A stretch of 64,000 nt of DNA from Eledone cirrhosa. Its lineage: Eukaryota. Location: contig OZ024748.1 in NCBI GenBank assembly GCA_964016885.1, positions 12,710,001-12,774,000 of the forward strand. The letters are read 5' to 3'. Positions 646 through 64,000 of the stretch are shown here, one piece after another. Made by a program: the position numbers and the translations under genes. How positions within the stretch are numbered: position 1 is the stretch's first letter; every line of letters begins with the position of its first letter. The notes under the pieces are model-generated. The model did not search any database. It worked only from the letters and a program-made list of their open reading frames with translations, and was not told the DNA's origin.

Positions 646-838
646 GAAAAAAATTCAGGACCCCGACGGCTGAGCTCCGGCCGTTTCAATAGCTAGATCC
701 GAACTCAGTTCGTATCTAGCTGTTGAAACAACTAGAGCTCAGCCGTCGGGGTCCTGAATTGTTTCATATTACCCCCTATACTACCACAAATATCGAGTAC
801 TCTGGTGAGTAATGGTCTAACTGGTTTCTACCACCTCC
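646..838. mobile_element. fold-back pair, family A (putative Penelope-like terminus)
   Basis: GGACCCCGACGGCTGAGCTC...GAGCTCAGCCGTCGGGGTCC inverted arms. Partial extra copy at 919-978. Confidence 0.6.
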
Positions 839-1061
839 AATCTTATCTATCTATCTTTCTTTCTATCTATCTATCTTTCTATCTATCTATCTATCTATCT
901 ATCTATCTATCTATCTATCAGGACCGCGACGGCTGAGCTCCGGCCGTTTCAATAGCTAGATCCGAACTCAGTTCGTATCTATCTATCTATCTATCTGCCT
1001 AGCTGTCAATCTCCAATCTCCCTCTTTCTCCTTTCCTCCATGTATGTATCTATCTATGTAG

Positions 1062-1122
1062 ATTTAACTACTACAATTTTAGCACAGTATGCACTCCACC
1101 AGTGGAATGTACTGCAGTTTGA
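1062..1122 (+). CDS. candidate terminal coding exon of an unidentified gene (FNYYNFSTVCTPPVECTAV*)
   Basis: Pyrimidine tract at ~1010-1040, TAG acceptor ending at 1061, open frame to TGA 1120-1122, followed by long T-rich UTR-like sequence. No homology confirmed. Confidence 0.35.
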
Positions 1123-1894
1123 AGATTCACGTTATAAACATTTACCTGGGAAATTCTTTGACGTCCACATTTTATTTTATTTTTCATTTTGTTTTTATTA
1201 TTTACTCTATTTATATATTTGAATTATTATTTCTGTTCTTTATCATTATTATTATTATTATTAAAAAAAAAATTTATTCATTACATATTTCTTAAAATAT
1301 TTCTTATTTTTGATTTTTTACTATATTTTTATTTATGTATATATATTTTAATTGAATTTAATTTTTTTAATTAATTAATTTATTTATATTTTTAAACTTT
1401 AGTTTCGGTATTAATTTGTCTTTGAGATCCTTCAGATCATAAGAAGAGTTTTTTTCTTCTTTTGACCATCATTTTAAGTATTCTCTGGTTATTTCTATTT
1501 TCAGAATTCCTCAAAATTTAAAAAAATCTAGTTTTTATCTGTCTCTGTCATATATATATATATATATATATATATATATATATATATATATATATATATA
1601 TAACACTCTCTCTATATATATATCTCAACCTCCCTCTCTCCCTATCTATCTCTCACCCTCTCTCTCTGTATCTATCTATCATCTATTTATCCATATATAT
1701 CTTACGCTCTCTCTCTCTCTCTCTCTCTTTCCCCTCTCTCTCTCTGTCTCACACACACACACACACACACACACACACACACGATATTATTATTATTACT
1801 ATCGAACAGATTTTCGATATTATTTATATCAATATGAAATTGTTATTATTTTTATTTTAAATTTGTATTTAATTTTAATTTTAATATTTTAAAC

Positions 1895-2345
1895 TCTTCT
1901 TCTTCTTCTTCTTCTTCTTCTTCTTCTTCTTCTTCTTCTTCTTCTTCTTCTTCTTCTTCTTCTTCTTCTTCTTCTTCTTCTTCTTCTTCTTCTTCTTCTT
2001 CTTCTTCTTCTCCATTCAAGTACTTTGTTTAATTTTTCATCTAATCTTTCCTTTTTGTGGTTTTGTTTGTTTATTTCTTTGTTTCAGTATTAGTTCCATA
2101 TTTTGGTTGTTGTTGTTGTTGTTGTTGTTGTTGTTGTTGTTGTTGTTGTTGTTCTTCTTCTTCTTCTTCTTCTTCTTCTTCTTCTTCTTCTTCTTCTTCT
2201 TCTTCTTCTTCTTCTTCTTCTTCTTCTTCTTCTTATTATTATTATTATTATTATTATTATTGTTTTTGTTGTTATTGTTGTTGTTTTATTAATCTTATAT
2301 ATAATAATTGTTGTTGTCGTTATTGCTATTGTTGTTGTTGTTGTT
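1895..2345. repeat. (CTT)n / (GTT)n / (ATT)n microsatellite cluster
   Basis: Visible pure trinucleotide runs. Confidence 0.95.
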
Positions 2346-2811
2346 TGCTACAAGAAATAAAATAAAATTTATATAAATAGCCATAGCCAACGTCTTCGTT
2401 CGTTCGTTCGTTCATTTTTTTTTTTTCAGTTTTTTTTAGAATATATTTTATTGTTATTTTTATTTCATATTATTTTAGTTTATCTTTTTAATAATTTTCT
2501 TTCTTTCATCTTCATCTTCTTCTTCTTCTTTCTCAAAACATTACTTTGAAACTAAAGCTAGCTTGTTATCGAAGTCATTTTTTGAAACCAAATAAGAAAA
2601 AAAATAAGGGATAGAGATGGGCGGTGGAATTTTTTGAGATGAAATGAAATGATGTATATTAAAGTAACAGTAGTTAAAATATGGGGAAAAATAATATAAA
2701 AAATAATAAAAAAAAAAGATCAAATATGTAACGAAAAAGAAGAAGAAAAAGAAAAAAGGAAAGAATTGCTAATTTTTTTTTTACCTCTGCTGGGCTGGAA
2801 CCGGAAACCAG

Positions 2812-2894
2812 ACCGGAGAACATTGGAGTGGTAATTTCCGGTTTAATGGTAACTTCCAAATGAAATTCAAGGAAATGGAGATACTGACGCGCAG
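2812..2894 (+). CDS. candidate internal exon ([27 protein letters not shown])
   Basis: CTAAT branch-like site and poly-T at ~2769-2782, first AG at 2810-2811, donor CAG|GTATGT at 2894/2895, one open frame. A competing minus-strand donor exists at 2785/2784. Confidence 0.3.
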
Positions 2895-61240: not shown

Positions 61241-61811
61241 TATTAAGACAGGGGGGAAGAAAAAATGGCTTCACTTGTGCTTTCAACAAATTTATTTTCT
61301 TCACAAAATCCACAAATAATTTTTCTTAAAAAAAATTATTTTATAAATTAAGTTGTTGGTTGTTGGTTAGGTCTTAGGAGTTCTTGGTTAACGTAGGAGG
61401 TATTGTTTCGTTTTTAGAAAGTGCATGGGTGTAGGTGTGTTGAAAAAGTGTTCATAGCAGTAATGAGTTGAGACGGTGAGTAGGGTTGGGTTCAACACAC
61501 CTACACCCATGCACTTATTAAAGGGGGAGAAAAGAAACCCCCACCACACCACAGACATGTTAAATCCCTATATATAGAACAACACACCACATACACATCA
61601 GTTTGACAAGCGCACCTCAGCGTGAAAGGTCTTTCTAAAAACGAAACAATACCTCCTACGTTAACCAAGAACTCCTAAGACCTAACCAACAACCAACAAC
61701 TTAATTTATAAAATAATTTTTTTTAAGAAAAATTCTTTTTGGATTTTGTGAAGAAAATAAATTTGTTGAAAGCTCAAGTGAAGCCATTTTTTCTTCCCCC
61801 CTGTCTTAATA
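61241..61811. repeat. ~180-bp inverted repeat with a nested 26-bp inverted repeat
   Basis: 61241-61421 is the reverse complement of ~61631-61811. Inner pair at ~61419-61444 and 61491-61516. Confidence 0.85.
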
Positions 61812-62289
61812 TACCTAACTGTACCAAGGATTACACACATTCTCCAATATATATATATATATATATATATATATATATATATATATATATATATATATAT
61901 AGATGCTATTAAGTTAGACATGGCCAATAATGGCCGAAACCTATCAATGTTATCAAAGTTATATATGTTGTCGCTGGTTGGATTCAATTCTATTGCCCCG
62001 AACGTAGAACTTTGGTGTCGATTGGACATTAACGAGGCAGAGTGAGATCGCATCTGTGGTACAAAACAGTTACTATCTTGACCGATTACCATCACAATTA
62101 CTACGAAGCGGTTCTTACACGTGACTGCTGGACCCGGATGAAACGAAGACGAAGAATTTCCTTGCGTACCGTTTTGTACCACAGATGCGATCTCACTCTG
62201 CCTCGTTAATGTTCAATCGACACCAAAGTTCTACGTTCGAGGCAATAGAATTGAATCCAACCACCGACAACATAGTTGGATGACCGATA

Positions 62290-62603
62290 ATCACACCAAA
62301 CCGGAGTACTGTGATCCTTGTGATTTCGAGATATACAACCACTGACACTGTTACGAAGACCAGAAAACCATACTCCATAATATCTAACCAAGTGATTGAT
62401 TTGTGCGACCAAAATAACACCACACATATATTGAACTAGGAATATTGGATCCCCCGTCAATGTCTGGCTGAGCAAAAATAGATTTCTATCTGCATTGGAA
62501 TTTACGAACTTGTGCATCTGCTGTGGTGTCAAAAACAAACGCACATAACCGCACAGATGAACAATGGACTATGCCACGTGGGTTGAACCTGCAAGTGAAT
62601 TGA
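62290..62603 (+). pseudogene. decayed Penelope-type GIY-YIG endonuclease
   Basis: Frameshifted remnants: CDPC, TRKPYSI..NQVI, YIELG, CLAEQ (cf. RLxEH), and EQWTMPRGLNLQVN* (cf. terminal PxGLN). Confidence 0.45.
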
Positions 62604-63297
62604 AGGATGTGTAACTCTGATATACAGATTATTTATTATTAAGATGTATAAAATTGACATAACTATTATCATCTTATATTCTCTCAACTAATCACATTTG
62701 ATTATATTTCCCTATTCCGTTTTCTCCCCCCATATTTATAATATTTTTATTTGAAAAAATCGGTTTTTTTACATTGTGTTTTTCCCTTTCTAATACTTGC
62801 TTATATTTCTTTATATATTCTCTATATATTTTTTTATATTTTTTTATATATATATTTTTTTATCTTTATTCTTATTTTCACTTTTATCCTCCTTTATATT
62901 TTACCTTATTCTTACTTTTATACCTTATTATAGTGTAATCTTCCCCATGCCTTATTATACATTATTAATTATAGATTATTATTATTACTCTTTTTCCATT
63001 TCTAATTACCTCATGTACTTTCTCCTCCGTTATATATATATTGTATGCCCTTTGTGTGTGTGTAGCCTCTGCACACCCTCTGCACCATACTATCGACGCC
63101 ACCCCATCTATGGTTCAACTAACCACTCGACTCCCGGAATGAATATGACCACAGCTAGTAAACAAGGACCCACACCCCACCCTCCCGCACCAAAATTAGA
63201 CTTATCGTCCCCTGCTTTTGCTCTTTACTCTTTTTACTCTTTGTTCTTGAATGTTTGGTTGGTAGAGTCCATAACACCAATCAAACCCCCTTTTATA

Positions 63298-63342
63298 GCT
63301 CTGACGAATCCTACGGTTACGTAAGGAAGAAACATTGTAAGC
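63298..63342 (+). ncRNA. type I hammerhead ribozyme motif
   Basis: GCU-CUGACGA-A.UCC.UACG.GUUA.CGUA.AGGA.A-GAAA-CA.U.UG-UA-AGC. AATAAA follows at 63344 and (TA)n follows shortly after. Confidence 0.75.
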
Positions 63343-64000
63343 CAATAAAAATCTTTTGATGTAGACGCTCTTGTGTTCTTTATCATATGTATATATATAT
63401 ATATATATATATATATATATATAAATATATATATATATGTATATATATATATATATATATATATATATATATAAATATATATATATATGTATATATATAT
63501 ATATATATATATATATATATATATATATATATATATATATACATACATGCATATACATACATACATATATATATGCTATGTGTCAAAGGGGGAGAGGTTC
63601 CATGGACCATGACCTGTTGATTGTCATCAGTTTGCTCAGTTCTCTGAAAATGGCGCCTAACTGACGAGTATTTGGTTAAAACCTGGGCATAACACCCCCT
63701 CACCTTCCTTCTCTCTTTCTATCTTCCATGTTATTGTTATTGTTATGAAGTATTTATTTAGCGTTGTTGTTGTTGTAGTTGTTATATGGTACTTAGCGTT
63801 ATTTTTGTTGCTGTTGTTTTTTTAATGTGGTTATTGTTGTTGTTATTGTTGCTGTAAATTCTTGTTTTCCTTTGTTATGTTATTATGCCATGTCCTTTTA
63901 TTTATTTAGATGTTATTGTTGTTGTTGTTGGTTTTGTTGTTGTTGATGAATTGTTGTTGTTGTTGATGATGTTGTTGTTGGTTGTGATGTTGTTATAGGT

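Follow-up and report, generated by a model that had tools for sequence, protein, structure and literature searches.

Head-to-head insertions of Penelope-like elements in Eledone cirrhosa point to two reverse transcription events from fixed start sites

The genome of Eledone cirrhosa contains numerous short insertions in which two pieces of one repeat are joined head to head with their 3' ends pointing outward. We have analyzed such fold-backs in a stretch of 64,000 nucleotides (contig OZ024748.1 of assembly GCA_964016885.1, positions 12,710,001 to 12,774,000; hereafter, the window) and in further samples of the genome. The results make it probable that these insertions of Penelope-like elements (PLEs) arise from two reverse transcription events, which begin at two fixed sites and are likely to stop at the 5' end of a capped RNA. 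The elements and their layout, i.e., an inverted copy, a tail at one end, and a TA target, have already been published; the part not found in print is the quantitative counts.

Results

Two fixed 3' start sites and their pairing

Masked self-comparison and direct reading, followed by arm-by-arm annotation, located about 22 insertions of four families, A to D, in the window, most of which adjoin (TA)n (Table 1); a generic repeat search was dominated by TA repeats. Hand counting gave 11 insertions of family A (seven pairs and four single arms), four pairs of family B (one extra weak match of 39 nt was discarded), four insertions of family C (one short pair, one long pair, and two single arms), and three pairs of family D, of which the script joined two, since the left arm at 36307-36595 lacked the required core. 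An earlier note on this DNA, made from the sequence alone, had reported head-to-head pairs with outward 3' ends at these positions and in about these numbers, and self-comparison, reading, and arm annotation all bore this out. Judged by sequence, the stubs are pieces of the pseudo long terminal repeats (pLTRs) of PLEs. Long copies outside the window run on into PLE-like open reading frames (ORFs) of the reverse transcriptase (RT) plus GIY-YIG type, in line with the PLE origin that had been proposed.

Arm ends and pairs were counted in a sample that comprised 97 evenly spaced 10-kb stretches, 120 loci at the first exact matches to an internal motif on contig C1, 20 stretches picked to surround matches that had been listed, and finally the window itself. 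Naturally occurring long copies were used as references. The sample yielded 501 arm hits, of which 395 were kept and 106 were dropped because the core overlap was too small; 94 of the latter were family D matches to AT-rich sequence or to a related family. Top-hit loci were excluded from the end and pair counts, because the query was biased to long arms, and were included in the survey of the base at -1 described below.

In all four families, the 3' ends of the arms form two classes, near and far, which are 66-92 nt apart, with tails of 80, 79, 92, and 66 nt between them. The near site is found at +55 to +148, numbered from the 5' stop described below, and family B has two near ends, at +55 and at about +66. 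Fixed near and far ends had previously been noticed in families A and B; both were found again, C and D have far ends too, and the arm ends in the sample were not random. TA stands after each of the two sites, in the element or in its flank. The far end lies 48 nt (B) or 45 nt (C) before the first ATG of the ORF, and thus both start sites are near the 5' end of the message.

The two classes were paired almost exclusively with each other. Among 90 short pairs, 76 were near plus far, one was near plus near, and none was far plus far, while in 12 pairs one arm was unclear and one pair ran off the locus. Near plus far therefore accounts for 76 of the 77 cleanly classed pairs (P about 5e-22 against an independent 50:50 choice), and it was also found in 21 of 25 rows of long pairs. 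At the 5' end, the near arm was longer in 30 of the 76 pairs, the far arm in 30, and the two were level in 16; when clipped at +1, the near arm still reached further 5' by at least four bases in 19 pairs. The proposal that insertion is TA-targeted and uses two primers with two defined start sites per RNA is sustained by these counts. A tail of 30-40 bp, often at one end only, has been described (PMC8557442), and for a Poseidon element the tail was shown in vitro to lie between two RT start sites (PMC11167929).

The 3' end was followed by TA in 340 of the 389 arms with sufficient flank (A 135/146, B 82/101, C 74/90, and D 49/52). At random positions, TA was found in 14% of cases in the genome sample and in 25% in the window. 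The claim that the families sit in (TA)n thus stood for most arms and failed for the copies at 646-975, which lie in (TATC)n.

Folding of single copies with RNAfold did not reveal a clear shared structure in the tails. The tails of families A and B share an 11-nt motif (window positions 59988-60005 and 31357-31372), which may fold into a short hairpin with a five-base loop and is a candidate protein-binding site between the start sites.

A common 5' stop and an extra G

The 5' ends of the arms cluster at, and just 3' of, a single base, the A of a YAG, which is numbered +1. Between -2 and +2, the stop rate per base was 0.06-0.17 (A 39/228, B 21/133, C 11/190, and D 14/128), compared with 0.001-0.005 between -119 and -11 (A 8/1579, B 3/2163, C 9/3620, and D 3/2402). 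A TATA box begins at -30 in families B (TATAAATA) and D (TATAAAA), and family A has a weaker TATA-like box at -28 to -30 (TTTAAATA at -28); the background frequency of TATAWA is 0.0024 per base.

In long copies, the base at -1 is C or T in 60 of 61 cases. For each family, the survey took the first 100 listed genome matches in which +1 was intact and was preceded by a base other than the genomic one. This gave 76 G, 11 A, and 13 T for family B (first 100 listed of 2,284 matches), 61 G, 18 A, and 21 C for family C (of 3,229), 45 G, 21 A, and 34 T for family D (of 989), and 88 G and 12 A for family A (of 3,903), where only A or G was allowed. As a control, the base before +5 of family B was G in 3, A in 74, and C in 23 of the first 100 listed; the genomic G content is 18%. 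After removal of G explained by the partner arm, 20 of 29 non-genomic bases at -1 were G in family B and 15 of 23 in family C, whereas the corresponding control at -2 gave G in 3 of 35 and 0 of 29 cases, respectively. Local arms of family A carried 10 G versus 2 A. Several single arms read (TA)n-G-+1, and several pairs have the G on both arms, mostly one base apart. In long interspersed nuclear element 1 (LINE-1, L1) and SVA insertions, an untemplated G has been read as a copy of the cap (PMC4859970). Taken as a whole, the sequence features suggest that +1 is likely to be a capped transcription start.

Several points weigh against this assignment. Family C has no canonical TATA box at -30. The position of +1 was initially set by the arm stops, which leaves the G and the TATA spacing as the sole independent signs. 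The G signal is weakest in family D, where nine locally checked short arms gave two G; in the A and D lists, partner-derived G was not separated out; and the control covers one position of one family and is A-rich partly through partner overlap. In addition, 19 arms of family A stop at -10 to -3 within T runs, some of which exceed those of long copies.

At five junctions of family A (L010, L029, L177, L182, and L296), 9-16 T stand right before +1, a longer run than in long copies; slippage at the start site and A-tailing of the cDNA are options. Over one family B element, the contig depth rose about 6-fold (X2) and 70-fold (X1) across +1 and was about 1000-fold lower in the ORF; as summed contig depth is a poor measure, these values were not used as evidence.

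Junctions between the arms

The junctions of the 90 pairs comprised 38 with a short overlap, nine blunt joints, and 43 with filler. Because 88 of the junctions were distinct, each fold was made anew. The median divergence between partner arms was lower than that between non-partners in family A (5.7% versus 17.1%), family B (1.0% versus 12.8%), and family D (2.0% versus 4.3%). This likeness points to one source for both arms, and one RNA and two RNAs of the same source would both fit. In family C, partners are no closer than non-partners (8.8% versus 7.6%), a point against the mechanism proposed below. In a head-to-tail dimer of family B at one locus (L113, positions 7780-7850), the join links a point one base beyond the hammerhead cleavage site with about +2, which may be a sign of template jumping.

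Arms that extend beyond +1 were mostly paired with another such arm (20 of 25 rows), and long inverted forms are therefore probably made at the downstream pLTR of a read-through RNA. Strand transfer from the cap to the 3' repeat was considered as the main route to long copies and is not favored, because arms past +1 pair together.

Hammerhead motifs are not the common landmark

The hammerhead motifs reported for the window were found again: a descriptor search gave 11 sites, compared with 0-3 in each of 20 shuffles. An Rfam scan of the window contained no hammerhead among 150 of 459 rows, nearly all of which were chance microRNA-like hairpins. The predicted pLTR motif is of type I and is canonical in family B, minimal with U3-A8 in D, and altered by a U4-to-A change in C. 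In family A, a hammerhead with a variable core is predicted to be whole only in long copies. The core box of 15 readable long copies has U3-A8, a described variant (PMC4209133), in nine and a mismatched C3-A8 in six (one further match was unrelated and was set aside). When single copies were folded with RNAfold, stems I-III were obtained for A and B and stems I-II for D, and the hammerhead fold was not obtained for C.

At least one arm had a complete core in 0 of 39 short fold-backs of family A, 15 of 26 of B, 3 of 12 of C, and 13 of 13 of D. The description of the fold-backs as ribozyme-containing was therefore not confirmed, and it fails for family A, whose stubs have only half of the ribozyme. 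The earlier note had also placed the inversion point in or shortly upstream of a hammerhead. However, +1 falls in loop II in A and coincides in B and C with the base at which stem I begins, and in D it precedes stem I by 38 nt; as its position differs among the families, the hammerhead is not a common landmark. It is the likely transcription start, rather than the hammerhead, that the junction tracks. The predicted cleavage sites are at +41, +45, +46, and +72, and arms that reach +1 have thus passed them, which indicates that the template was uncut, as in vitro (PMC11167929). In family A, the 5' strand of stem I, the core box, and half of stem II are all upstream of the TATA-like box, so an RNA that starts at +1 would hold the 3' half alone.

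Further hammerhead motifs near TA belong to other repeat families (window positions 8180-8315, 16880-16960, 17690-17770, 18515-18592, 37440-37530, and 63297-63346). In a 970-kb sample, the family at 8180 had 18 matches, that at 17690 had 17, that at 37440 had two, and those at 18500 and 63260 had none. A fifth family, E, could not be identified from the text of the earlier note; the motif at 63297-63346 may be meant.

Proposed mechanism and alternative explanations

We propose that the element protein, probably as a dimer, would nick both strands of a (TA)n tract. Priming from one nick would occur at the near site, and priming from the second nick at the far site, which lies 66-92 nt 3' of it; the TA after each site could pair 2-5 bases with the primer end and thereby aid priming. 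Both cDNAs would be copied from uncut sense RNA, reading through the hammerhead cleavage site, and would end at the cap or a few bases short of it, with the cap read as G. The cDNA 3' ends would then be joined head to head, by overlap, bluntly, or with filler, through end-joining repair. Priming at the downstream pLTR of a read-through RNA would yield the long inverted forms. In vitro, both strands were extended, two internal start sites and uncut RNA were used, and a dimer was predicted (PMC11167929). Further points count against this proposal: the start sites here are followed by TA, whereas no target homology was seen at the start sites in that study; the near and far assignment depends on a motif and coordinate rule; and some insertions, albeit few, may have been counted twice because loci overlap.

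Another explanation, which we judge to be improbable, retains the two primers and takes +1 to be a different RNA end or a block. The YAG could act as a splice acceptor or as a site of trans-splicing, or hammerhead structure could cause the stop. The YAG lies at -1 to +2 in all four families, with its AG at +1/+2, and a T-rich run precedes it in A-C, which fits a splice acceptor; in addition, a D. virilis intron ends at hammerhead helix I (PMC4209133). Both facts weigh against a transcription start. However, among 56 G-bearing arms, the upstream 6-mers were scattered, with no shared leader and no match to an exon end within 120 nt upstream, which argues against splicing, and the arms retain the AG. 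A structural stop would be in agreement with the position of +1 in B and C, where stem I begins at this base, but not with the stops of D, before stem I, and of A, inside loop II. The TATA box at -30 in B and D disfavors either version.

Self-priming, in which one cDNA or antisense RNA folds back and primes its own copy, is less probable still and is strongly disfavored. It was put forward for rotifer Penelopes on the basis of head-to-head palindromes, with an antisense template suggested and a sense template left open (PMC3846280), and subfamily variants common to partner arms would agree with it. However, snap-back from a far cDNA cannot produce a near arm that reaches further 5', as was observed in 30 of 76 pairs, and there is no room for a loop in pairs whose arms both carry a G, one base apart. 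Moreover, the cap mark of a sense strand misfits an antisense template.

The inverted arms, the TA flanks, and 10,000-40,000 motif matches per family are reminiscent of DNA transposons of the miniature inverted-repeat transposable element (MITE) type that are copied as units, but the probability of this is negligible in view of the distinct junctions and of long copies that run into retroelement ORFs; with the unequal ends, these junctions also led us to reject an identity as MITEs or DNA transposons. Sequencing libraries can contain fold-back chimeras. An origin from these or from assembly errors can be practically dismissed, as the arms are identical in just 22 of 82 comparable pairs, the ends are fixed and unequal, and opposite-strand joints from near +1 are present in short-read contigs of two public runs (from one study and possibly the same source).

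Two-primer insertion with a stop at the cap might be generalized, although we offer this tentatively and with considerable reservation. All endonuclease-positive (EN+) PLEs would then use obligatory double priming by an RT dimer on one capped sense RNA, with one subunit placed at each of the fixed start sites, and the tens of thousands of stubs would document paired strong-stop cDNAs in the genome. The family A promoter would lie inside the ribozyme, so that cleavage would be possible only for the downstream copy of a read-through RNA, and this would generate a short repeated end similar to the R region of a long terminal repeat.

Comparison with known systems

In L1, the internal position at which the second primer lands varies, and the two L1 pieces are not known to duplicate one region. 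In the present insertions, by contrast, both sites are fixed and the same region is copied by both arms. L1 twin priming is similar in its two-primer inversion and in the extra G at the capped 5' end (PMC4859970). The canonical PLE unit likewise has a head-to-head inversion and a tail on one arm that lies by the ORF start (PMC8557442, PMC3846280, PMC2377424). However, its tail is 30-40 bp, whereas the tails here are 66-92 nt and the stubs lack an ORF; and it is 5'-truncated, whereas most short arms here are bounded by +1 instead of being randomly cut, with near plus far pairing almost strict. Poseidon PAc in vitro (Frangieh et al. 2024, PMC11167929) is alike in two tail-defining start sites, extension of two strands, and uncut RNA; the main text of that study is silent on inverted insertions, on the cap, and on the transcription start. 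Animal non-LTR retrozymes (bioRxiv 10.64898/2026.07.22.740005) are also non-coding, hammerhead-bearing, and related to pLTRs, but they form head-to-tail tandem arrays, whereas the insertions here are one-off and head to head, many without a whole ribozyme. An identity as retrozymes was rejected for the head-to-head pairing and the lack of a complete hammerhead in all 39 A pairs.

The origin of the inverted repeats and one-ended tails of PLEs is named as an open question in PMC8557442. Our counts speak for two separate primers and a sense RNA that is capped and uncut, rather than for antisense self-priming, with evidence from two clades other than the one tested in vitro. They also make exact predictions for a reconstituted reaction, i.e., the start sites, the stop site, the extra base, and the pairing rule. 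Many MITE-like hairpins in such genomes would be retroelement stubs that mark the likely transcription start. A literature search that covered a minor part of the subscription papers found neither a description of arms that are marked by a cap and bounded by the start site nor a count of near/far pairs.

Identity of the element families

In family C, a 713-aa open frame is flanked by two pLTR copies. The ORF of family B begins after the far end and is disrupted further on, and in family A the final 364 aa of the nuclease protein lead into the pLTR. For family D, the last 352 aa were read and matched Pfam GIY-YIG (E 3.4e-7); the B fragment gave a GIY-YIG match under the cut-off (E 2.2e-4), and a Pfam search of the C and A proteins gave no match. 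The A, B, and C proteins are 44-54% identical over their overlapping part, and the families are thus not all unrelated, contrary to the earlier note. The closest of 1,249 homologues were 40-57% identical.

By their motifs, families A, B, and C are classed as related Hydra-clade elements and family D as Neptune-type. The Hydra-clade placement was made because A-C carry motif marks listed in PMC8557442. All three have a CxCx5C linker and CxxC-E and lack a cysteine pair inside GIY-YIG; the CxH motif was found by pattern in B and C and by eye in A; and the RWK/DKT-like motifs are RWR and NKT in C and RWR in B (this part of A was not recovered). The supplement of that paper gives (TA)n targets and an octopus member for the clade, which includes Hydra-1_Obim of Octopus bimaculoides. 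A-C are like the clade in the C-terminal nuclease, the linker, the (TA)n target, the RWK-/DKT-like motifs, CxxC plus CxH around E and N, the lack of CCHH, and a hammerhead in the pLTR. They differ in being longer than the typical <3 kb, with a 3' untranslated region of about 1.0-1.4 kb; A further differs in its split ribozyme and U3-A8 core, and C in the U4-to-A change.

Family D has the linker CGRSNCGTC (CX4CxxC), a cysteine pair inside GIY-YIG, two His downstream, and an RT end of YLDD. The Neptune clade is alike in YLDD, CX4CxxC, CxxC in GIY-YIG, the Pfam GIY-YIG match, and a minimal hammerhead with a palindromic stem III; the protein comparison covers the last 352 aa.

Abundance and density

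Exact 19-25-mers were counted in the 3.0-Gb genome and gave 35,545 matches for family A, 31,535 for B, 40,746 for C, and 10,226 for D; the reversed motifs used as controls gave 0. Insertions counted by script numbered 24 in the 64-kb window, 16 in 100 kb of neighboring DNA, and 76 in 870 kb elsewhere, and the corresponding numbers of short fold-backs were 14, 4, and 16. The density of one insertion per roughly 3 kb that had been noted is therefore local, and the spacing elsewhere in the genome is about 11 kb. The window has twice as many TA tracts per kb as DNA elsewhere.

Insertions in the window and further repeats

No ORF remains were detectable in the window, where tblastn with six ORFs from other loci (C, D, three pieces of another PLE, and one LINE) matched nothing.

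Table 1. Insertions of families A to D in the window, with strand and arm structure (near and far refer to the 3' end class; numbers with a plus or minus sign are relative to +1)
Position	Strand	Feature	Details
648..834	.	Family A (older subfamily) fold-back	In (TATC)n; left arm from +1 (705), right arm from +8 (714)
917..968	-	Family A single arm	Copy of the 648-705 left arm
5627..5817	.	Family B fold-back	Far arm (-, 5759 down to 5627) from +1 with extra G; hammerhead complete in both arms, cores 5753 and 5769
5764-5817	+	Near arm of fold-back 5627..5817	Begins at +2
7490..7703	.	Family A fold-back	Far arm left, near arm right; hammerhead 3' half only
11346..11543	.	Family A fold-back	Far left, near right; junction 11486, +1 reached by both arms
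27065..27115	+	Family A single near arm	Flanked by TA tracts
27156..27640	.	Family C long inverted pair	Both arms beyond +1, left to -23, right past -120; hammerhead-like motifs at 27216 (-) and 27574 (+)
31246..31417	.	Family B fold-back	Near arm left (+15), far arm right (+8)
31568..31698	-	Family A single far arm	
31717..31879	-	Family C single far arm	Start at about +1; adjoins TA
31985..32168	.	Family A fold-back	Near arm to +1, far arm to about +29 only; near arm longer at 5'
33785..33866	-	Family C single near arm	
34160..34421	.	Family D (Neptune-type) fold-back	Far arm on right
35531..35889	.	Family D fold-back	Far arm left (+5), near arm right (+1), junction 35741-35743; hammerhead cores 35703 (-) and 35786 (+), about 40 nt off the junction
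36066..36262	.	Family B (second subfamily) fold-back	Near arm left, far arm right
36307..36595	.	Family D pair	Left far arm ended early; right near arm from +1
36812..37035	.	Family C fold-back	Far arm left, near arm right
39960..40150	.	Family A fold-back	Near arm left, far arm right
40170..40333	.	Family B fold-back	Far arm left (+7), near arm right (+19)
54357..54527	.	Family A (older) fold-back	Far arm left, near arm right
55158..55381	.	Family A fold-back with duplicated filler	Far arm from +1 (55244), G before it
59916..60050	+	Family A single far arm	5' end fused to a piece of another repeat

At 39739-39865 lies a short repeat of very high abundance, with 240 matches in 62 of the 97 sampled stretches. 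It also forms a head-to-head fold-back of its own 3' end beside TA, and it may be mobilized by the same machinery. Unassigned inverted pairs, most of them beside TA, are located at 6089-6217, 6370-6781, 17087-17199, 55004-55107, 61247-61805, and 61964-62274; relatives of the pairs at 55004 and 6089 are present in the sample. The 970-kb sample contains further recurrent fold-back families beside TA, and the habit thus extends past A-D. A tRNA-like Rfam match at 54877-54948 on the minus strand (41.5 bits versus a gathering threshold of 29) sits within a repeat of the same family as the relatives of the 55004 fold-back. Finally, an 822-bp stretch at 55530-56351 has one similar stretch elsewhere in the window.

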